A program made the position numbers and the translations under genes. A DNA stretch of 64,000 nucleotides, taken from IMG/VR virus record IMGVR_UViG_3300009788_000009, positions 3,934 to 67,933 of that record. One strand, 5' to 3'. Positions 1,110-55,234 of this stretch are shown piece by piece. The stretch comes from a virus. The notes below the pieces were generated by a model, which was not told the DNA's origin, did not search any database, and saw only the letters and a program-made list of their open reading frames with translations. Numbering within the stretch: the stretch's first letter is position 1; every line of letters starts with the position of its first letter.

Positions 1110-2946
1110 CCCATTAAAGTTAGACTATCTAGTAACACTAGATTGGGAAACATACCATGACTCTTCTTATTCACTTAGAAATTTAACTTATATTGAATAT
1201 ATAAGAAGTCCACTTTTTAAAGCTCATGGAGTGAGTATACAAATTAATGATAGTAAACCTATATGGTACTCAACTAAGTTAACCATAGAAAAAGCATTAT
1301 TTGATATACCGTGGAATAAAGCGGGTTTAATAGGTCATAACCTACACTTTGATGGTTCTGTATTAGCCTTTAGATATGATATAATACCTAAAACATACAT
1401 AGATACCATATCTATGGCTCGTGGTGCATTACCAACAATTAAAAGCTATGCATTGAAATACTTAGCTGACTACCTTAATCTAGGTATTAAAGACTCAACT
1501 GCATTAGTAGAAATTAAAGGGGTACGTGATCCTACTAAAGAGAACCTTAAAAAGTTAGGCATATATTGTTGTGATGATGTAACACTAGCTTGGAAATTAT
1601 ATAATACACTTGCTAAATATATACCAATTAATGAATATAAATTAATGGATATAACAACTAAGATGCAAACTGAACCCAAACTAATGTTAGATAAACCTGC
1701 CCTAGTAACACTCGTAGAAAGTAAATTACAAGAAAGAGAAGACGTATTATCAGATGCAGAAGTAACTATATCAGAAGTAAGAAGTTCAGCAAAACTTGGA
1801 GAAAAGTTTAGGGGATTAGGTATAGAACCCCCAACTAAAACAAGTCCTGCAACAGGTAAACAAACCTATGCTTTTGCTAAGACTGACTTAGGTATGCAAA
1901 AATTATTGAATGACCCTAATATAAAAGTCGCTAAATTAGCAAAAGCAAGACTAACCTGTATGTCAAGTTTAGATATTAAACGAGCTGAACGGTTTATATC
2001 TATACATGATTGTAATAATGGTGTAGTACCTGTACCACTTAACTATTATGGTGCTCACACAGGTAGATGGTCTGGTGGAGATAAAATCAATTTCCAAAAC
2101 CTATCTAAGAAATCAGGTTTAAGACATTGTATAATAGCACCCCCAGGCTATTTAATATTAGCAGCAGATCAATCACAAATTGAAGCTAGAATTACAGCTT
2201 GGCTTGCAGATCATATAAGACTACTACGTGACTTTAAACTTAAAGATGAAGGTATTAGCCCATATGATGTTTATGAAATTATGTCTTCTCATATATATCC
2301 TGGTACACCTATTGATCAAATAGATGAAGACCAAAGATTCATTGGTAAGATGTGTATACTAGGATTAGGATATGGAATGGGACATGTAACTTTACACACT
2401 CAATTAAATCAAATCTTAGGAGCTGGTTCAGTAAAAGAATTTGAAGCTAAACAATGGGTAGATATTTACAGAGATCTAAATAAACCAATAGTAGATCTTT
2501 GGGATGATATGTCAGAAGTACTACTTAACATGGTACATGGGAGAGATGGTACACTTAAAGTAATAGCTTATGATCAAAGCTCTGTTCATCTACCTAATGG
2601 AATGTTTTTACAATACCCATTTTTAACACAAGTTCCTAATAAATGGGGTGGAATAGGATATGAATATACATACAAAGACAAACCACAAAATATATATGGT
2701 GGTAGATTAACTGAAAATATAGTACAAGCATTAGCAAGAATAAAAATAGCAGAAGATATGATAAAGATTAGTAACCACTATCAGATATCAACAATGTCAC
2801 ATGATGAAATAATATGTGTAATAAGAAAATCAGAAATAGATGAAGCTAAAGAAATCATAACAGAGGTTATGAGTACACCCCCAGAATGGGGTTTAGATAT
2901 ACCTCTAGCATTGGAGATAAAGATAGATGATAAATACATCAAATGA
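1102..2946 (+). CDS. Family A DNA polymerase with 3'-5' exonuclease domain
   Basis: Exo motifs LDWET, GHNLHFD, YCCDD; HTGRWSG; motif A AADQSQIEAR, motif B RFIGKMCILGLGYG, motif C HDE. Confidence 0.95.
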   Translation: MHNPLKLDYLVTLDWETYHDSSYSLRNLTYIEYIRSPLFKAHGVSIQINDSKPIWYSTKLTIEKALFDIPWNKAGLIGHNLHFDGSVLAFRYDIIPKTYIDTISMARGALPTIKSYALKYLADYLNLGIKDSTALVEIKGVRDPTKENLKKLGIYCCDDVTLAWKLYNTLAKYIPINEYKLMDITTKMQTEPKLMLDKPALVTLVESKLQEREDVLSDAEVTISEVRSSAKLGEKFRGLGIEPPTKTSPATGKQTYAFAKTDLGMQKLLNDPNIKVAKLAKARLTCMSSLDIKRAERFISIHDCNNGVVPVPLNYYGAHTGRWSGGDKINFQNLSKKSGLRHCIIAPPGYLILAADQSQIEARITAWLADHIRLLRDFKLKDEGISPYDVYEIMSSHIYPGTPIDQIDEDQRFIGKMCILGLGYGMGHVTLHTQLNQILGAGSVKEFEAKQWVDIYRDLNKPIVDLWDDMSEVLLNMVHGRDGTLKVIAYDQSSVHLPNGMFLQYPFLTQVPNKWGGIGYEYTYKDKPQNIYGGRLTENIVQALARIKIAEDMIKISNHYQISTMSHDEIICVIRKSEIDEAKEIITEVMSTPPEWGLDIPLALEIKIDDKYIK

Positions 2947-3334
2947 AATATCGCTAAGTGAATTACCATTAGGTGCAAAGATTGACCTACTACTTGAAAC
3001 TAGATCAAAAAGATTAGAAAAAGCAAAGGAGGTTCAGAATCTTAAGACAAATGAGACAGAAATAACAAAAGATATTATGAGTTCTCTACAAGAGTTGGGT
3101 ATGACAAGTGGCAAAGGTAAAGAAGCCACCTTTTCATACTCAGAACATACAGTACCGAAACTCGTTGACTTTAAAGCAATTAAAGAGTATATTATGGAGA
3201 CAGGAAACCTTCAATTATTCGAAAAAAGAATATCAGCTCCAGCCTATAGGGAGCTTTTTGGATTGGAAGGTAACATACCTGGCATAGAACCTTATACCTT
3301 TGATAAACCAAGTATTACAAGGAGCAAAAAGTAA
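2927..3334 (+). CDS. Conserved-looking phage replication-module protein (coiled-coil N-terminus)
   Basis: Overlaps polymerase end; typical position in PolA replication cassettes; function unknown. Confidence 0.6.
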   Translation: MINTSNEISLSELPLGAKIDLLLETRSKRLEKAKEVQNLKTNETEITKDIMSSLQELGMTSGKGKEATFSYSEHTVPKLVDFKAIKEYIMETGNLQLFEKRISAPAYRELFGLEGNIPGIEPYTFDKPSITRSKK

Positions 3335-4011
3335 TGGCTAAAGATCTAATGAATCCCGCCGAACTTCTCAAGCAACAACTAGCAGAGACTAACGAGCGTA
3401 TCAATACGGGTGATTCCATTCGTATTCAATCAGACGGTAAAGAATATACTACACCAGACGGAGCCAAAGGCCAAGAGTTAGACGTAGTGATTATAGACTT
3501 CGCTATGTATAACGCTTACTATGATCGTCCATATGTAGCTAATGATCCTAAACCGGCTGCTTGTGTAGCAATTGCACAACGTAAGTCAGACCTATTACCT
3601 ATTGAAGAATCCCCCGTACCACAAAATGACGACTGTAAATCATGTCCTCAGAATCAGTGGAAATCAGCAGGTGGTGGAAGCAAAGGTAAAGCATGTAAGA
3701 ATACTCGACTATTAGCAGTAGTACCTGTAGCTGATATAGCTGAAGCTGATATTTGGTTATTCTCTGTACCACCTAGTTCTACCAGTAAGTATGATGACTA
3801 TGTACAAGACTTAGCTACAGAAGAAAGCTTATCACCCCTGTTTGTTCACACTACTATCAAACAGGACAAGAAGCTAACTTATTCAGCACCTAGATTCGAA
3901 TCTCAACAAGCATTAGGTAAAGATGATGTAGCTAAAGCTATTGGCAGGATGCAGGAAGCAAAGAACCTGATTATGGCTAAACCTGATTTATCAGAATATA
4001 AAGCACCATAA
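3334..4011 (+). CDS. Putative ssDNA-binding/annealing protein
   Basis: C..CPQNQW.S...KGKACKN.R.LAV motif seen in phage replication modules; function inferred from context. Confidence 0.55.
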   Translation: MAKDLMNPAELLKQQLAETNERINTGDSIRIQSDGKEYTTPDGAKGQELDVVIIDFAMYNAYYDRPYVANDPKPAACVAIAQRKSDLLPIEESPVPQNDDCKSCPQNQWKSAGGGSKGKACKNTRLLAVVPVADIAEADIWLFSVPPSSTSKYDDYVQDLATEESLSPLFVHTTIKQDKKLTYSAPRFESQQALGKDDVAKAIGRMQEAKNLIMAKPDLSEYKAP

Positions 4012-44051: not shown

Positions 44052-44217
44052 GAAATCTAGCTGAAAAGGGCTAAATAGTCGGTTAAGTTATAAAAAAAAT
44101 TTCGTGAGATATGTATAAAGAACGTGCGCTCCTCTCCCCCCTCCCTTCGGGATGGTAAGGGGGTGGGTTCGGATTCGGATTCCCTGTATTGAATAGGGGG
44201 TCAACAAGGAGTAACAC

Positions 44218-44571: not shown

Positions 44572-44696
44572 ACATATGATACCCCACTATCAAGGGGTAC
44601 ATATTACCACTCTCCATCACCTAAGAGGATATGCGAAGATAGACATGTGATACCCCACTATCAAGGGGTACACATTACCACTCTACATCACCTAAG
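44572..44696. repeat. Two 54-bp direct repeats (44572-44625, 44643-44696) with internal inverted repeat TACCCC-N8-GGGGTA
   Basis: 51/54 identical, 17 bp apart. Confidence 0.9.
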
Positions 44697-44769: not shown

Positions 44770-45129
44770 ATGTTAAGTATAGTTAAGTTAGTACGTGATC
44801 GTTTCTTTGTTGATGGTGTTGCACTTGTTGGACGGTGCGATGACATCACTAAGGAGAGTCATAGGGTTCATGAGTTGGAAGTGGAGGCAAAGAACGCTCG
44901 CCACCACCTGACTACTGATGCTACCAATGTGTTGCATGATATGGTTGTCAACATGCTTGATATAACTAAGGCTGATAATACACACACAGTCAATAGGATA
45001 CCAGCTATCAAGTTGTATCGTATCATTACCAACTGTGGTCTCAAAGAAGCCAAGGATATGATTGAAGAACAGTTCATTGAACTTGGTCTGTACTGGTATC
45101 GTCCTCATGATGATGATATCCCGTTCTAG
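44770..45129 (+). CDS. Ribosomal L7/L12 C-terminal-domain protein with SSB-like DDDIPF tail
   Basis: NRIPAIKLYRIITNCGLKEAKDMIE matches the L7/L12 CTD motif K...IK..R..TGLGLKEAKD.VE; ends HDDDIPF. Confidence 0.8.
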   Translation: MLSIVKLVRDRFFVDGVALVGRCDDITKESHRVHELEVEAKNARHHLTTDATNVLHDMVVNMLDITKADNTHTVNRIPAIKLYRIITNCGLKEAKDMIEEQFIELGLYWYRPHDDDIPF

Positions 45130-45197
45130 GGTTTAATACCCTCCTAACCTAGCTTGCTAGGTTAGTGGGGCAATTGCGCTCGCAAAGGAGTTCTATC

Positions 45198-45371
45198 ATG
45201 GAACTAGCAACACATGTAGACCGAGAGGGCTACAAGCATATCGAAACAACAGTTGATCAGTACTCTAGTATTGATGAGCTGTACGAGGATCATAGTATTA
45301 GTATGATCATTGACTTCGATCAGCGTGTAGACGAAGGTGGATTTGAGTTCTTCCACATCAAAGCGTTATGA
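45198..45371 (+). CDS. Small acidic early protein
   Basis: AAGGAG RBS before ATG 45198. Confidence 0.6.
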   Translation: MELATHVDREGYKHIETTVDQYSSIDELYEDHSISMIIDFDQRVDEGGFEFFHIKAL

Positions 45372-45595
45372 AGTATATAACGTTGGCATTGGGTATCTTA
45401 ATGATACTCATAGGTTGGAGGGCGTGTACCTACACGCCTATCCACCTTACATCACACACCATTAGCAACGGTGAACAGTTCACATGCATCTATGAAACAA
45501 AGGATGACTTTGAACAGGCCCAAATGGATGGCATATTCAGGGGGGATATGTTCTATGTTAACGAAGACGGTACTAAGGAGGTACTAAGTAAATGA
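45368..45595 (+). CDS. Small early membrane-anchored protein
   Basis: N-terminal hydrophobic segment; ATGA overlap. Confidence 0.55.
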   Translation: MKYITLALGILMILIGWRACTYTPIHLTSHTISNGEQFTCIYETKDDFEQAQMDGIFRGDMFYVNEDGTKEVLSK

Positions 45596-45822
45596 GTAAA
45601 CTTAAAGCGAAAGAAACCAAGGTATGTAGAGAGTATGTTAACACTTACTACCCCGATAGACGAGGGTATCTAGGTACATGCTACTACCTGGTATGGGCAC
45701 TAACCTCTAAAGGTTGGTTCTATCTTAACACCAAGTTCCTCAATCCTGCTCATGCAGCAAAGATGGAGGCTAAGATACTTGGTAGTAAGATCAACACTAC
45801 TAACTGGAGTACATTTATATGA
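45592..45822 (+). CDS. Small early hypothetical protein
   Basis: AAGGAGG RBS. Confidence 0.6.
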   Translation: MSKLKAKETKVCREYVNTYYPDRRGYLGTCYYLVWALTSKGWFYLNTKFLNPAHAAKMEAKILGSKINTTNWSTFI

Positions 45823-45972
45823 TGGAAGTATTCAGGTTAGAGATGGATCAAAACACCGATGAAGTTAAACTCATACGAGAGTATACGTATGATCAAGAGT
45901 GGATTGATAAACAGGATGAGCATAATGATTACGTTATGCTTGATATTATTAGCCCTATAAGTCATAAGGATA

Positions 45973-46371
45973 TTGATTATGAAAGACGAAGCAGGTAATT
46001 GCAACCTCTGTGACAATGGTCTACGTGAGTGTAGCTGTTGTCGGGAGTGTGGCGAAGGATACAGCATGGAACACACTACTAGAGATAACGATGGTAAGTG
46101 TTTCAGTTGTTCATTCTGGCATCAACGTTGGTGTAGGCATAAAGCCAACCCTGATACCTCGTTTATTGTTAAGGGTACTGCATACATGGTGTGTGCAGAA
46201 CCCGAAGAAGGTAAGCGGCCCATCTTCCAAGGATTTGGTGGATCTAAGTTCGATATCTACCCTCATTCTGGAGGACACATTGTATCTCACAATGTATGGT
46301 GTCAAGGAGATGTTCCTGATAGGTTCAAGGATCGTCTTCCTAATAACGCTGCTTTTATCAAACCTGACTAG
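45973..46371 (+). CDS. Cys-rich early protein
   Basis: Several CxxC pairs; CFSCSFW, GFGGSKF and SHNVWCQG motifs. Confidence 0.65.
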   Translation: MIMKDEAGNCNLCDNGLRECSCCRECGEGYSMEHTTRDNDGKCFSCSFWHQRWCRHKANPDTSFIVKGTAYMVCAEPEEGKRPIFQGFGGSKFDIYPHSGGHIVSHNVWCQGDVPDRFKDRLPNNAAFIKPD

Positions 46372-46448
46372 CGATTAGGACACGCTACTAGTCACTTCAA
46401 CAGAGGTGGCTAGTGGGGTAATCCTGCCCGAATAACTTAGAGGTTATT

Positions 46449-46799: not shown

Positions 46800-47096
46800 A
46801 TGGTAATTGAATCTGGAGTCATAATATTCATTGGACTCCTCTTTATATTCGTTAAGTTTCCCAGGCATTGGGTACTTATCGGATTAGGTTATGCTCTCTG
46901 GATAGATCTCGGAGCTGCACTCGCAGCATACGTTCTACACTGGGGCACATTCACAGGTACTATGGCAGCAGCAGTAGCAGGTCTCATGACCTCTGCAATG
47001 ACTACTATAGGTCGCAGGTGGATGGGGTTCACGTTCTATAACCCTGACGCTGGAGAATGGCAGTATAAAAGAGGTTTAAGGAACCTATATAAGTAA
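46800..47096 (+). CDS. Early multi-TM membrane protein
   Basis: AGGAGG RBS before ATG 46800; LHWGTFTGTMAAAVAGL hydrophobic motif. Confidence 0.65.
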   Translation: MVIESGVIIFIGLLFIFVKFPRHWVLIGLGYALWIDLGAALAAYVLHWGTFTGTMAAAVAGLMTSAMTTIGRRWMGFTFYNPDAGEWQYKRGLRNLYK

Positions 47097-47107
47097 TACT
47101 GTCACTT

Positions 47108-47137
47108 GTGGGGCCTCGAAAGAGGCCCTACTTTTTT
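47108..47137 (+). terminator. Rho-independent terminator
   Basis: GGGCCTC-GAAA-GAGGCCC then T6. Confidence 0.85.
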
Positions 47138-47318
47138 GGCTACGTAATGGTCACTAAAGTAACCACACTCGCGCTACGCGCTTCGTTCTCCTCGCTTCGC
47201 TCGTCGTAAGTGGAAAACCTCGCGCTACGCGACTTCGGTTCTCCACATTGTCTCCGACGGGGGCTAGGTATTAGGTGCATATGTTGTATATGTAATGTAA
47301 CTTAACTGGAGATAGATA

Positions 47319-49274: not shown

Positions 49275-49570
49275 ACCCCTGACTCAAAAAAAGTGAGACA
49301 AACGAGTCTTTTGAGTCATTTGTCTCAGCAAAGTAAGACAGAATTTGTTATACTAAACAAGTACTTAAACCCATTGTCTTAAAAAACTTACTTTTAACCC
49401 TACTCCCTATAGAATCATACTATTTTGTTACATATAGCCACTATCATAGATAAATATCTTAGTTCAAATATAATAAGTGAGTCTTTTAAGACAAAAGGCT
49501 TAAGCTCTTGATTTCATGGGGGTATTCTGTCTCAGTAAGGTGAGACAAACGACTCAGTTGTCTCGAAACT
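49275..49570. repeat. Cluster of short direct/inverted repeats around an AT-rich core (origin-like)
   Basis: Multiple TGAGAC/GTCTCA, TAAGAC/GTCTTA and GAGTC/GACTC units; GTGAGACAAACGA(G/C)TC twice. Confidence 0.65.
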
Positions 49571-52333: not shown

Positions 52334-52722
52334 TGTTAAATCTAATACCTAAAGAAATAAAAGGGGAAGCATATTATTATAGATATGAAGATCATTCTTC
52401 TAGCTATAATTTAAGAACATCGTTATATAGATTTAGAGTAGTTAAAACTACACTACGTGGAGTATGGATAAAACTCTCTTATGGTGAGAAAGATAGGTTT
52501 ATACTTAATAACGCTCGTAAACGTTATGCATATCCCACTAAAGAATTAGCCTGGGAGTCATTCAAAATACGTAAAGCCTGGCGCGTTATGCATCTTGAAT
52601 CACAATTAAATTATGCAAGACAAATTGGATCAGCAGTAGTAAACATAAAGGAGCCACCAAATGACCACAAAGATTACGGACTATACATTAGACTTAGAGA
52701 CGATGGGGACGACATCTACTAG
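52333..52722 (+). CDS. Hypothetical phage protein
   Basis: VVKTT..GVWI...KRYAYPTKELAWESF motif. Confidence 0.65.
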   Translation: MLNLIPKEIKGEAYYYRYEDHSSSYNLRTSLYRFRVVKTTLRGVWIKLSYGEKDRFILNNARKRYAYPTKELAWESFKIRKAWRVMHLESQLNYARQIGSAVVNIKEPPNDHKDYGLYIRLRDDGDDIY

Positions 52723-53218
52723 TGTTATAGCCTCCATAGGTGCAGTAGCGTTCGATAGAAACTGGGAATCATTTGATAAAGACTCATGTGCAGCGTTCTA
52801 TGTAAATGTAGATATACAAGACTGTTTAAATCGTGGTCTTACTGTTGATGGTAACACACTTCAATGGTGGATGTGCCAATCTGAAGAAGCACGTTTAGCA
52901 CTATTTACACCTAAACCTGTAACGTTACATACTGGGTTAGATAAACTTGCTAAATGGGTTAAAGACATAGGTGGACGTAATATACCTTGTTGGACACATG
53001 CTACCTTCGACGCACCTATCTTAGGATATGCAGCAACTAAATGTGGTAAGAACCTACATAATATAACATCATTCAAATGCCAAAGAGATATACGTACATT
53101 AAATGAATTAAAAAGATTCTATAAAGTTGAAAGAAAAGGAGTACATCATAACGCTCTAGGTGATGCGCTCTTTCAGGCTGAATACATCTGGGGCTTACTA
53201 AACAACAAAGGAAACTAA
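52661..53218 (+). CDS. DEDDh 3'-5' exonuclease (exoribonuclease-like)
   Basis: LDLETMG, TFD, RDIRT and HHNALGDA motifs. Confidence 0.85.
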   Translation: MTTKITDYTLDLETMGTTSTSVIASIGAVAFDRNWESFDKDSCAAFYVNVDIQDCLNRGLTVDGNTLQWWMCQSEEARLALFTPKPVTLHTGLDKLAKWVKDIGGRNIPCWTHATFDAPILGYAATKCGKNLHNITSFKCQRDIRTLNELKRFYKVERKGVHHNALGDALFQAEYIWGLLNNKGN

Positions 53219-53437: not shown

Positions 53438-53809
53438 ATGAGAAATTTTGAAGGTTCTTCATGGACTGATCAATTAGACGCATGTTCCTATGCTGTAACC
53501 ATCGAACAAGTTAGAAAAGAAATGCATGAAAAAGGTGGTATGCTATACAATAATGAAAACGAGTGGAGTAATTCAGATAAAAAGATCTTAAAATCAAGGC
53601 AAATTAAAAGTACTTTAACAGGTAGGTTCCATACCAAAGCAGGACAATTCTGGACAAAAGATGATGAAAAATGTCTAAAAGTAATGTTTCAAAATGGTAA
53701 GTCACGACATAACATTGCTAAACGTCTACAACGTACCCTTGGTGCAATTGAAGCAAGACTAATGAAACTTGAACTTATAGACAATCCACATAAACAAAAA
53801 AGGTATTAA
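53438..53809 (+). CDS. Myb/SANT-like HTH protein (possibly C-terminal part of a frameshift fusion)
   Basis: WTKDDEKCLKVMF..G.S...IAKRLQRTLGAIEARL; no clear RBS before ATG. Confidence 0.7.
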   Translation: MRNFEGSSWTDQLDACSYAVTIEQVRKEMHEKGGMLYNNENEWSNSDKKILKSRQIKSTLTGRFHTKAGQFWTKDDEKCLKVMFQNGKSRHNIAKRLQRTLGAIEARLMKLELIDNPHKQKRY

Positions 53810-53829
53810 AGAAGGAAGTCGCTTTGCCA

Positions 53830-54239
53830 AGTTACAGACTGACTGAGATAACAAGCTAACTTGGGAGTAAAGTACTGCTCAAAAAAGACTTAGGAAAGCT
53901 TGGAAGTAAGCTATTCAACTTAGACATTCAAAGAACAGTTGACAATTGAGCCTGCCCTTTATGGCAAACAGATTAGGTCTGTTGGCTCACAAGTAGAGTC
54001 GAGAAGTCAACCGGCGTATGGAGTCCGTTCTACTGCTCCTTAAGTAGTTATGGTGTTCTGCTTAACCTTTTTACGACACGATTCTAATAAAGTGGATAGT
54101 AACTTTAAAGGCAACTAAAAACACCTAAATCAATAGGCGTAGCAGTTATGGGACTCCTGCAAGTACAAGTGAATGTGTCAGGCCGGTAAGAACGGTGAGG
54201 CTTCTGGAGTGGAGTATCTCCACACAAACAGATGTAACT
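53830..54239 (+). ncRNA. Large structured non-coding RNA, ROOL-like candidate (~410 nt)
   Basis: No ORF in the track across a 556-bp gap; closing stem AGTTACA/TGTAACT plus about ten internal 5-7 bp complementary pairs, some crossing. Confidence 0.7.
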
Positions 54240-54262
54240 CTCAAAATTATTTAGATAGTGTA

Positions 54263-54280
54263 GCGAACTATTCGCCTTTT
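54263..54280 (+). terminator. Weak terminator-like hairpin after the ncRNA
   Basis: GCGAA-cta-TTCGC then CTTTT. Confidence 0.35.
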
Positions 54281-54365
54281 AATTGAGTAGGTGGACCTCC
54301 TGAAAAGTCCCCCTCCCTACCCACCTGCTCTATCATGATAATGGGGAGGGGGGCACTTAAAGGAA

Positions 54366-54836
54366 ATGGAAATGGAAATTGATACTACTCTTAAACCTAT
54401 AGCTATGATAGATGGAGCCAATCCTACAGAAGTTATGTACTTTGGCACTGTCATGGAAGCTCAAGACTTCGTTGAAAAAGCTTCTAGTGATAGCGACACC
54501 ATAACCAGAGCACATATCTATAGTTTATACTCTGTAGGTGAACCTGTACGATCCTTTGGATGGAAATTACAGACTGATACAGCTACTAATTTACGAGAAA
54601 CAGGTAAAGTTAAACCTGCTCGTAAAGGTGGATGGACAGTAAGAGAAGAAGATTTACTAAGAGCAGCCGTTAAAGATGGACTTGGTAATTCTGCTATTGC
54701 TAAACAACTTCATAGAAGTGTGGGTTCTGTATACCAAAAATCTGTTAAACTTGGTATTAAAGGTGGTGAAAAAAAACCTAGAACAGCTAGACAACAAATT
54801 GAAGACTTAAAGAACAAACCTAAAAATATATGGTGA
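54366..54836 (+). CDS. Myb/SANT-like HTH protein
   Basis: WTVREEDLLRAAVKDG....IAKQLHRSVGSVYQKSVKLGI; AAGGA RBS. Confidence 0.7.
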   Translation: MEMEIDTTLKPIAMIDGANPTEVMYFGTVMEAQDFVEKASSDSDTITRAHIYSLYSVGEPVRSFGWKLQTDTATNLRETGKVKPARKGGWTVREEDLLRAAVKDGLGNSAIAKQLHRSVGSVYQKSVKLGIKGGEKKPRTARQQIEDLKNKPKNIW

Positions 54837-55234
54837 GGCATACAAGTATGGAAAATGAAGTTGGTTTTGAATCTACTTTAGTTGGTAAAGTAATAACCAA
54901 TATAATAGGTAAAGAAGGTGATCATGAAATGACCTTCACAACAAATCGAGGGGATAGATATCAACTATATCACATAGTCAATTGTTGTAATAGTGTTGTC
55001 CTAGAAGATATATGTGGTGATCTAGATGATCTACTAAATTCTCCTATTGTAGAAGCACAAGAAGTAACTAACCAAGATGATGACCCAATGGAAGAACCAG
55101 AATCATATGATTCACATACCTGGACCTTCTATAAATTAGCCACTATAAAGGGTTGGGTAACTCTAAGATGGTTAGGAACCTCTAATGGTTACTACTCAGA
55201 AAATGTTGGCTTCCAAAAATTACCAACTGGCTGA
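54830..55234 (+). CDS. Conserved-looking phage protein
   Basis: CC..V.LEDICGDLDDL, WTFYKLAT.KG.VTLRW.G.SNGYYSE motifs; true start may be the second Met. Confidence 0.7.
   Translation: MVRHTSMENEVGFESTLVGKVITNIIGKEGDHEMTFTTNRGDRYQLYHIVNCCNSVVLEDICGDLDDLLNSPIVEAQEVTNQDDDPMEEPESYDSHTWTFYKLATIKGWVTLRWLGTSNGYYSENVGFQKLPTG

Follow-up and report, generated by a model that had tools for sequence, protein, structure and literature searches.

An orphan, partly conserved non-coding element in a compact 68-kb phage, possibly a structured intercistronic or leader RNA

We analysed a 64,000-nt window (64 kb) of a 67,933-bp phage record. Judged by its proteins, this compact, 68-kb phage is a distant relative of Pseudomonas phage KPP25: identities to Pseudomonas phages of the KPP25 group are 57.6% for the major capsid protein and 33.8% for the primase. 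The Gram-negative host proposed in an earlier sequence-only reading of the locus is plausible by this kinship alone. The largest non-coding stretch within the phage genome (547–556 nt) lies in the window between two co-oriented genes, and the following features were placed in and around it.

53438-53809, plus strand: upstream gene, 123 aa, with a C-terminal helix-turn-helix-like domain
53810-54365, no strand assigned: ORF-free gap between the two plus-strand genes
53830-54239, plus strand: 410-nt 'domain' of complementary words put forward by the sequence-only reading
53938-54011, plus strand: candidate junction domain, GTTGAC/GTCAAC around TGAGCC/GGCTCA, TGCC/GGCA and AACAGA/TCTGTT
53963-54016, plus strand: conserved block, 54 nt with 5 differences, ungapped, against a 151-nt contig of sequencing run X1
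54017-54160, plus strand: long irregular hairpin, formed by GGAGTCC/GGACTCC, ACTGCT/AGCAGT and GGTGTT/AACACC
54020-54039, plus strand: alternative local hairpin with GGAG/CTCC arms and the word CCGTTCTAC (54025-54033) in its loop
54263-54285, plus strand: terminator-like hairpin, 5 bp with a 3-nt loop, then CTTTTAATT
54285-54294/54321-54330 and 54307-54319/54342-54354, plus strand: interleaved helices, which either exclude one another or form an H-type pseudoknot
54366-54836, plus strand: downstream gene, 156 aa, with a C-terminal domain as in the 123-aa gene

The two flanking proteins are paralogous (28% identity over 53 aa, E 1e-6) and both match PHROG 323, 'transcriptional regulator, D5-like' (E 2.9e-5 for the 123-aa and 4.2e-7 for the 156-aa protein); a search of the 123-aa protein against Pfam returned no family. 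Between the genes there is no ORF of at least 50 aa, 547 nt are uncovered, and the G+C content is 0.43 (0.395–0.435 in the gap against 0.31–0.375 in the flanks). The second-largest internal gap in the window measures 259 nt, the other inter-operon gaps span 160–259 nt, and the annotated gaps in the replication region of KPP25 are all at most about 141 nt. The 67,933-bp record contains the gap sequence once. This sequence is present in one sequencing run, X1, which is a DNA run and perhaps the sample of origin; there is no RNA run among the holders listed, a fact with no bearing on expression.

The gap is truly non-coding. Each of its six frames contains 9–15 stops, a density at the level of random sequence, and since every frame carries all three stop kinds no single stop reassignment would open it; recoding was ruled out on this ground. 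A tblastn comparison of the gap with 2645 translated ORFs, drawn from this phage and from 23 related loci, gave no match, the best E being 0.003 on a tiny database. No tRNA or tmRNA occurs in the 64-kb window (ARAGORN was used for tmRNA). Iterons, repeats and repeated operator words in the gap do not exceed chance. It contains no plus-strand promoter-like site, with site counts at or below shuffle expectation, and a comparison of nine intergenic gaps yielded no convincing promoter-like word common to them.

The sequence-only reading had taken the 410-nt domain for either a minimal ROOL variant or a new large RNA class. In the 64-kb window none of the Rfam 15 covariance models reached its gathering score. 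With permissive filters and a limit of E ≤ 10, positions 53600-54500 returned no ROOL, GOLLD, OLE, raiA, RNase P, tmRNA, group I or tRNA. The matches obtained there, Chlorobi-1 (17.3 bits, cut-off 50) and two microRNA models, are junk and all three sit on the hairpin at 54270-54366; none falls within 53810-54269. The ROOL model RF03087 (574 positions, cut-off 99.1 bits) scored three first-look candidates in the complete record (67,933 bp) and yielded no match at E ≤ 10; 14 control genomes likewise gave nothing, and hence the comparison has no positive control. The group II intron domain model RF01998 gave no match. The gap matches no known RNA family, and its identification as a ROOL RNA is rejected as far as the covariance model can test.

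The complementary words themselves are present. All nine helices that had been placed by position are exact reverse complements (9/9), and the short words TGAGCC/GGCTCA, TGCC/GGCA, AACAGA/TCTGTT, AGCTT/AAGCT and GTGGAG/CTCCAC, as well as the segments AACAAGC, CAACCGGCGTATG and TACGACA, are all found in the sequence. To set this against chance we counted exact reverse-complement k-mer pairs in 53830-54239, with 500 dinucleotide shuffles and 311 windows of the same genome as controls. At k=5 there were 112 pairs against 99.8 ± 11.8 in the shuffles; at k=6 there were 32 against 26.3 ± 6.4, a count reached by 100 of 500 shuffles and by 100 of 311 genome windows; at k=7 there were 4 against 6.8 ± 3.3 (reached by 420 of 500 shuffles); and at k=8 there were none against 1.8. 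The number of complementary words in this interval is at chance level. The large multi-pseudoknot architecture built from them has no support beyond their presence, its crossing helices being chance-level words.

The folding of the gap is also unremarkable. On the plus strand the 556-nt gap folds at −160.8 kcal/mol (z −2.21) and on the minus strand z is −1.99, with 3 of 100 shuffles equally good in each case; the 281-nt core at 53920-54200 has z −1.55 (12 of 200 shuffles equally good). Among the phage's own 400-nt windows, regressed on G+C, 53830-54229 ranks 48 of 318 on the plus strand and 223 of 318 on the minus strand. Sub-pieces trimmed to helix ends reach z of about −3 on both strands, with boundaries set post hoc after folding. 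These comprise the long hairpin at 54017-54160 (MFE −38.9 kcal/mol, z −3.17 on the plus and −3.06 on the minus strand) and the junction domain at 53938-54011 (z −2.84 and −2.99, respectively). Because both strands fold equally well, folding decides neither the strand nor between RNA and DNA.

Helix probabilities were taken from the Boltzmann ensemble of the gap, a method that cannot score pseudoknots. Several helices are well populated: GGAGTCC/GGACTCC at about 1.0, ACTGCT/AGCAGT at 0.98 and GGTGTT/AACACC at 0.77, which together give the long hairpin probabilities of 0.77–1.0; AACAGA/TCTGTT at 1.0; the two small hairpins AGCTT/AAGCT and GTGGAG/CTCCAC at 0.99; ACATTCA/TGAATGT at 0.8; and GTTGAC/GTCAAC at 0.72. 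ACCGGC/GCCGGT reaches 0.16, and AGTTACA/TGTAACT, which had been taken to close the whole domain, 0.02. The two crossing helices score 0, pseudoknots being beyond the reach of the method. Within the proposed three-way junction AACAGA/TCTGTT reaches 1.0 and the junction helices about 0.3; the arrangement comes to −20.2 kcal/mol, and the MFE, −23.1, belongs to another fold. Folded without crossings, the 281-nt core shows 2 branch points.

Searches for homologues covered several collections. With blastn against 50,697 phage records there was no match, either for the gap in distant mode or for 8 kb by megablast; blastn and nhmmer against 21 and then 55 loci found nothing; and BLAST over five whole related virus records returned just a 14-nt match (E 0.37). 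A single-sequence covariance model, R1 (281 positions, 76 pairs), recovered only itself over 46 sources (325,275 bases) and had no matches over five whole records including KPP25 and phiA008. Synteny was followed by way of the neighbouring DUF7448 gene, which gave 20 IMG/VR loci (at most 52% identity) and 32 metagenome loci (at most 58%), and by way of the exonuclease, which gave one locus (43%); the 156-aa, 123-aa and primase proteins had no relative in IMG/VR. None of the DUF7448 or exonuclease loci has a similar gap, the gaps there being tRNA arrays or AT-rich repeat regions. An exact 19-mer word matched one viral and two genome sequences, which is chance, with identity ending at 19–21 nt; the one of the three that was checked, L058, lies inside ORFs, and there was no model match at any site. 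A three-word gapped pattern had one match, which looks coding and carries no significant model match. Across all collections searched, the sole homologue is the 151-nt contig.

This contig comes from X1, the only run with this phage, and has a depth of 2.4; its 30+30 letters flanking the block are visible and the five differing positions within the block are not displayed. It is about 91% identical over 53963-54016 and otherwise diverged, and that block is the sole piece of the compared 2301-nt stretch that a second sequence matches at 85% or more. Beyond the block the contig, read by eye, retains ATTCAAA, AGTTGAC and CCGTTCTAC, with indels of 4, 4 and 1 nt in between. None of these is a multiple of three, and shared words parted by frame-breaking indels argue for constraint at the nucleotide level. 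The TGCC/GGCA hairpin with its 6-nt loop in the window appears by eye as GCC-GAAA-GGC in the relative. The arms around CCGTTCTAC are GGAG/CTCC in the window and GCCAG/CTGGC in the relative, a difference that can be read, by eye and after the fact, as two G-C to C-G swaps; in the window this local hairpin (54020-54039) is weak (−3.4 kcal/mol), has an ensemble probability of 0 and competes with the long hairpin. Taken at sequence level, the comparison points to nucleotide-level constraint on part of the gap, and the partial conservation appears incompatible with coding.

Towards the downstream gene the gap ends in a further set of predicted structures. The stem of the terminator-like hairpin, at 54263-54275, has 3 G-C pairs in its 5 bp and is weak (−4.2 kcal/mol); two terminator-like sites were found against 1.8 expected, and the hairpin is far weaker than the clear canonical intrinsic terminator of the phage at about 47108-47138. 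No terminator was found between the upstream stop at 53809 and position 54263. The interleaved helices that follow have −16.2 kcal/mol for the first and −25.7 kcal/mol for the second, which spans a G-rich tract 12–23 nt upstream of the ATG at 54366. The region 54285-54354 contains a perfect inverted repeat of 9 nt, and its z is merely −1.56.

Our tentative reading, at somewhat less than even probability, is that the gap is a conserved non-coding orphan and probably gives a structured RNA of the intercistronic or leader type. In this proposal a structured RNA of about 450–550 nt would be selectively maintained in a compact 68-kb phage. It would be transcribed together with the plus-strand array of early and replication genes, as suggested by the lack of a terminator between 53809 and 54263, and would most likely act as RNA. 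A core (about 53920-54200) would bear the conserved block and the conserved loop word, and a 3' control module would consist of the weak terminator at 54263-54285 followed by the interleaved helices at 54285-54354, which could mask the G-rich tract where ribosomes would bind for the downstream regulator gene. The element would control the extent to which transcription and translation continue from the upstream into the downstream gene block. We infer all three of these: that the gap is transcribed, that its fold matters and that it regulates. In favour of an RNA are a long non-coding gap kept in a packed genome, G+C above that of the flanks, the conserved block, several well-populated ensemble helices, the 3' helices and the terminator-like hairpin. 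Weighing against it are folding that is not exceptional, words at chance level, a weak terminator and no plus-strand promoter-like site, together with a comparison that consists of one low-depth 151-nt contig and a 'compensatory' reading made by eye and post hoc.

The new large RNA class that the sequence-only reading had offered as its alternative may exist, the gap being non-coding and partly conserved; the thermodynamic evidence for it is weak. Its more specific form is doubtful in our estimate: the gap would be the founding member of a class of structured phage RNAs of ~400–470 nt, found in at least two distinct phages of a subsurface community, with a core better conserved than the flanking protein genes and a conserved loop word, CCGUUCUAC, whose pairing to the distal AGAACGG (54189-54195) would be a tertiary or kissing contact.

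An unlikely reading places the function in the DNA. The gap would be a regulatory spacer at a transcription-unit boundary, with operators for the flanking paralogous regulators and a promoter unseen by the sigma-70 scan; the conserved patches would be binding sites and the RNA fold incidental. The PHROG 323 regulator domain of both flanking proteins fits this, as do the alike folding of the two strands, the background level of folding and complementary-word counts, and the conserved short words at variable spacing, which also suit binding sites. AGTTGACA holds a −35-like TTGACA; however, read by eye it lacks a −10 partner, and the scan has no plus-strand site. Similarly, CCCCCTCCCT stands upstream of two plus-strand gene starts, at 44137 and 54309, but gets 4 matches in 8 of 100 shuffles. 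Some 550 nt is also long for such a spacer beside the other inter-operon gaps, and 54 nt conserved at about 91% is more than one expects of a binding site; the G+C content is higher, not lower, than in the flanks, and iterons and repeated operator words are lacking, unlike at 49290-49565. Less probable still, indeed improbable, is that the gap is what remains, decayed and now functionless, of a gene or genes or of an insert since lost, such as a tRNA array or small accessory gene. In relatives the DUF7448 gene lies within tRNA arrays, from which it follows that this neighbourhood gains and loses non-coding cargo, and the random-like stop density and lack of a family match are as a remnant would have them. 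Against this, there is no tRNA trace (no tRNA-model match at E ≤ 10 in 53600-54500), 0 of the 2645 translated ORFs match the gap, and a diverged relative retains the block at about 91% while the neighbouring coding DNA is unmatched at 85% or more. Phage genomes of fixed packaging size shed useless DNA fast, and a remnant would be expected to be lost quickly.

A small protein gene is very improbable. The candidates are a 34-codon ORF with a TTG start at 53939-54043, which spans the block, and a 37-codon ATG ORF at 54173-54286. In the window the frame that contains the block runs for 39 codons without a stop and, read by eye, the 114 letters seen in the relative are open as well; yet an open run of 38 codons has by estimate a chance of about 1 in 7 per frame, neither start is preceded by a Shine-Dalgarno-like word, and in the relative the TTG and the block are in different frames, the three indels shifting the frame of the words on either side (read by eye). 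To a compact ROOL RNA we assign a probability close to negligible: the phage setting and the ROOL-like words listed by the sequence-only reading speak for it, and nothing more. According to PMC5737381, ROOL RNAs have a mean length of 581 nt, six multistem junctions, three pseudoknots and 10 highly conserved nucleotides, compared with a 410-nt domain, or a 556-nt gap when the 3' hairpin module is included, and 2 branch points. ROOL and GOLLD occur in phages, often close to tRNAs, according to PMC5737381 and bioRxiv 10.1101/2024.12.08.627333; of this setting the present element shares the phage and not the tRNA proximity. It resembles ROOL as a large non-coding phage region with several predicted helices and no assigned function, and differs in being shorter, with far fewer junctions, no nearby tRNAs, no demonstrated pseudoknots and no covariation support, in addition to the null result with RF03087.

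As a large phage-borne RNA candidate the element is also comparable to GOLLD, OLE, raiA and HEARO, from which the empty Rfam-wide scan sets it apart; it shows no sign of multimer-forming loops. The reported GOLLD and ROOL neighbourhoods are akin to the tRNA arrays that hold the DUF7448 gene in relatives of this phage. The islands beside DUF7448 genes at three such loci (L009, L040 and L043) are likewise plus-strand and non-coding, in a similar gene neighbourhood; however, they are tRNA arrays (20 tRNA matches in L009 and 14 each in L040 and L043), whereas this phage has no tRNA, and they show no sequence or covariance-model similarity to the gap.

In phages and bacteria, read-through can be governed by structured RNAs such as attenuators and cis-acting antitermination RNAs, HK022 put being an example of the latter. 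The element resembles such leader and intercistronic RNAs in lying between two co-oriented gene blocks and in having a terminator-like hairpin followed by competing helices over the ribosome-binding tract of the next gene; it is much longer and has no family match, and the competing-helix reading is thermodynamic only. Should the element prove to be a functional RNA, a phage lineage with none described, whose nearest cultured kin are KPP25-group Pseudomonas phages, would gain a large non-coding RNA, and this RNA would lie outside the Bacillota-centred world of ROOL and GOLLD. At present it stands as a modest lead from one phage and one partial relative, alongside a useful negative, in that a striking list of pairings and a resemblance to ROOL fell to controls. 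A replication origin in the gap was rejected, its repeats being at chance; the stretch at 49290-49565, which unlike the gap carries repeats, is the better origin candidate.

The element lies in an ORF-free gap (53810-54365) between two plus-strand genes, in single copy in a source record of 67,933 bp that has direct terminal repeats, is rated 100% complete and contributes its bases 3934-67933 to the window. The closest kin in culture belong to the KPP25 group of Pseudomonas phages (57.6% identity in the major head protein, 33.8% in the primase/helicase-like protein). This kinship agrees with the element having been placed in a Gram-negative phage but, being distant, suggests such a host rather than establishing it. 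The gene neighbourhood is as follows.

About 8480-44015, minus strand: structural genes, including the large terminase, the major head protein and a 2233-aa virion protein
From 44218, plus strand: dense array of small early and replication genes
52661-53218: Rv2179c-like 3'-5' exoribonuclease gene, near the gap
53438-53809, plus strand: upstream flanking gene, 123 aa, weak match to PHROG 323 'transcriptional regulator, D5-like'
54366-54836, plus strand: downstream flanking gene, 156 aa, weak match to the same PHROG 323
54830-55234: DUF7448 protein gene, near the gap

Neither flanking protein matches a Pfam family. The two genes are paralogues: a helix-turn-helix-like domain of 53 residues, perhaps Myb/SANT-like, is common to the C-termini of their products (28% identity, E 1e-6).

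The gap is non-coding. Each of its six frames contains 9-15 stops, and all three stop kinds occur in every frame, so that reassigning one stop cannot open it; a comparison with 2645 translated ORFs of this phage and of 23 related loci gave no match, and we consider a small peptide gene here very improbable. It is also the largest internal stretch of its kind: 547 nt lack an ORF of at least 50 aa, the second-largest such stretch measures 259 nt, and in the annotated replication region of KPP25 gaps do not exceed about 141 nt. The G+C content is 0.395-0.435 across the gap and 0.31-0.375 in the flanking genes.

The sequence-only reading had described 53830-54239 as a large multi-pseudoknot RNA. 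Its letters were confirmed, since all nine helices for which it gave coordinates are exact reverse complements in place and every short word that it quoted is present. Exact reverse-complement k-mer pairs were then counted against 500 dinucleotide shuffles and 311 same-genome windows. The stretch has 32 pairs of 6-mers (shuffle mean 26.3), 4 of 7-mers (6.8) and no 8-mers (1.8); these counts do not exceed the controls, and any sequence of 410 nt would be expected to contain complementary words of this sort. For the 556-nt gap the folding energy is -160.8 kcal/mol on the plus strand (z -2.21) and -149.7 kcal/mol on the minus strand (z -1.99), each equalled or bettered by 3 of 100 shuffles, and for the 281-nt core (53920-54200) z is -1.55, with 12 of 200 shuffles as good or better. 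Among the phage's own 400-nt windows, regressed on G+C, 53830-54229 ranks 48th of 318 on the plus strand and 223rd on the minus strand. On either strand z comes close to -3 for the pieces 53938-54011 and 54017-54160, whose boundaries at helix ends were picked after folding. Individual helices differ widely in ensemble probability: about 1.0 for GGAGTCC/GGACTCC, 1.0 for AACAGA/TCTGTT, 0.98 for ACTGCT/AGCAGT, 0.8 for ACATTCA/TGAATGT, 0.77 for GGTGTT/AACACC and 0.72 for GTTGAC/GTCAAC, with ACCGGC/GCCGGT at 0.16 and the proposed three-way junction at about 0.3 (-20.2 against -23.1 kcal/mol for the MFE). With word counts at chance, a domain-closing helix at 0.02 and a folding energy unremarkable for this genome, an exceptional multi-pseudoknot fold was not borne out.

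Resemblance to a compact ROOL RNA fared no better. The ROOL model RF03087 (574 positions, cut-off 99.1 bits) gave no match at E<=10 in the full record; the 14 control genomes were likewise without ROOL and so provide no positive control. The Rfam scan that had been proposed as a check returned no Rfam 15 family at gathering score in the entire 64 kb. With permissive filters (E<=10) over 53600-54500 there were three matches, all far below threshold on a hairpin at 54270-54366: Chlorobi-1 (17.3 bits against a cut-off of 50) and two microRNA models. ARAGORN found neither tRNA nor tmRNA. ROOL RNAs average 581 nt with six multistem junctions, three pseudoknots and ten highly conserved nucleotides (PMC5737381), and in phages and prophages they are often near tRNAs (PMC5737381; bioRxiv 10.1101/2024.12.08.627333). 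Those of these features that could be put to the test, length and proximity to tRNAs, do not fit the gap and, with RF03087 silent, assignment to ROOL is almost certainly wrong. The pairing list and the ROOL resemblance thus both fail their controls, and the lead that remains is decent but thin.

The one informative comparison for relatives was with the contigs of X1, the only sequencing run in which the phage occurs (DNA, maybe from the source sample). A near-identical contig of 6536 nt shows 4 differences in 2301 nt, all in the flanking genes; their absence from the gap says little because about one would be expected there. A second contig (151 nt, depth 2.4) aligns without gaps to 53963-54016, differing at 5 positions, and diverges from the window on both sides of this block. 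Elsewhere in the 2301 nt there is no match at >=85%, so the block is either kept at least as well as the neighbouring coding DNA or travels independently. The flanks were compared by eye and after the fact, over 30 visible letters per side, the five differing positions of the block not being displayed. ATTCAAA and AGTTGAC are kept upstream and CCGTTCTAC downstream, with 4 fewer nucleotides between the first two, 4 fewer from AGTTGAC to the block and 1 fewer from the block to CCGTTCTAC. These changes are not multiples of three and therefore shift the shared words in frame relative to the block. The window's hairpin TGCC-(6 nt)-GGCA reads GCC-GAAA-GGC in the relative, also by eye. Around the conserved CCGTTCTAC the possible arms are GGAG/CTCC in the window and GCCAG/CTGGC in the relative, which would correspond to G-C replaced by C-G at two pairs while the loop word stays the same. 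In the window this local hairpin has an ensemble probability of 0 (-3.4 kcal/mol, against -24.7 kcal/mol jointly for three long-range helices), the ensemble being dominated by the long hairpin with which it competes. Patchy conservation of nucleotides, indels that break the frame and co-changing arms are the pattern of a functional non-coding element and would favour RNA, under the heavy caveats of one low-depth contig and 60 visible flanking letters.

The first plus-strand terminator-like site after the stop at 53809 is a weak one within the gap. Strong canonical terminators are used elsewhere in the phage, and one of these shows that the host RNA polymerase reads such signals.

About 47108-47138: textbook intrinsic terminator downstream of the ORF that ends at 47096 (G+C-rich stem of 10 bp with a GAAA loop, then a U run)
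54263-54275, plus strand: weak terminator-like hairpin, 5-bp stem then CTTTTAATT, -4.2 kcal/mol
54285-54294/54321-54330: interleaved helix 1 in the last 80 nt of the gap, -16.2 kcal/mol
54307-54319/54342-54354: interleaved helix 2 in the last 80 nt of the gap, -25.7 kcal/mol

No sigma-70-like promoter was called on the plus strand inside the gap, and a 3-kb scan gave 6 promoter-like sites against 8.6 +/- 3.6 in shuffles. The two predicted helices would be either mutually exclusive or an H-type pseudoknot. Helix 2 covers a G-rich tract that lies shortly before the ATG at 54366; z for this helix is only -1.56 because C-runs and G-runs also pair in shuffles. The word CCCCCTCCCT has exactly two plus-strand copies (44137-44146 and 54309-54318), both following an intergenic gap, 50-80 nt upstream of a plus-strand gene start and beside a G-run able to pair with it. 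Allowing one mismatch gives 4 matches against 1.45 expected, a number reached by 8 of 100 shuffles.

Our preferred reading, held tentatively and at somewhat less than even chances, is a maintained non-coding element that acts as RNA. Its non-coding nature, length, composition, partial conservation and helices rest on direct observation, and from there we infer its transcription, the relevance of its fold and a regulatory role: it would be transcribed together with the plus-strand array, with a structured core around 53920-54200 and a 3' module made up of the weak terminator and of competing helices that lie over the ribosome-binding tract, and would meter expression of the downstream block, whose first gene is a regulator. 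A less probable account is a DNA-level regulatory spacer serving the two flanking regulators, which are paralogues. The gap has no repeats beyond chance and no convincing words common to it and eight other intergenic gaps, whereas the ORF-free 49290-49565 abounds in them (nested inverted repeats of 42 and 39 nt, recurring TGAGACAAA/GAGTC words) and would serve better as a candidate operator cluster or replication origin; it is also the strongest minus-strand folding outlier in the genome scan (z -4.2). A remnant without function, which would have to accommodate the partly conserved block, is improbable. Structured intergenic RNAs are already known from phages and, if real, the RNA element preferred here would add a new member to this kind, orphan so far and without a family. 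That it represents a new class of 400-470-nt phage RNA, common to at least two phages of one community, is conceivable though unlikely.

The phage itself is close to being an orphan. Searches of 50,697 phage records at the DNA level gave no match, and the two flanking proteins and the primase have no close IMG/VR relative. DUF7448 relatives were found at 20 IMG/VR loci (at most 52% identity) and 32 metagenome loci (at most 58%), and the exonuclease at one locus (43%). At the relatives' loci blastn and nhmmer found no gap-like sequence. Nothing gap-like was returned by R1, a covariance model of the single core sequence, over 46 sources and five whole records, or by BLAST over five whole records; exact-word scans gave chance matches only.

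In several relatives (L009-L012, L040-L043) the DUF7448 gene is embedded in a large array of tRNAs, with 20 tRNA-model matches in 8.3 kb at L009 and 14 ARAGORN genes each at L040 and L043. Upstream of the L009 tRNAs, about 650 nt (2790-3450) have no ORF of at least 60 aa, tRNA, Rfam match or R1 match; they carry repeated 'catatag...ctatatg' hairpins and could represent either a further unclassified non-coding RNA of a phage or a group of processing signals. At L025, the closest DUF7448 relative (58% identity), the gene is preceded by 850 nt of AT-rich ORF-free DNA (1-852, G+C 0.25) with iterated 'tttagaatcaataactta' and 'tatttgcaag' words, which has the look of a regulatory region or an origin and is not related to the present element.

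Within the window, four of the five most negative GC-corrected plus-strand folding energies (z -2.7 to -4.0) fall at 45030-46430, inside small early ORFs and with no long repeats to explain them. Just upstream of the early plus-strand array, two direct repeats of roughly 70 nt contain perfect copies of a 25-nt word (44577-44601 and 44648-44672) that has no match in any shuffle. Each copy forms a hairpin with a 6-bp G+C-rich stem and an 8-nt loop; these could act as early promoters specific to the phage or as processing sites, and presumably resemble the hairpin promoters of N4-like phages.
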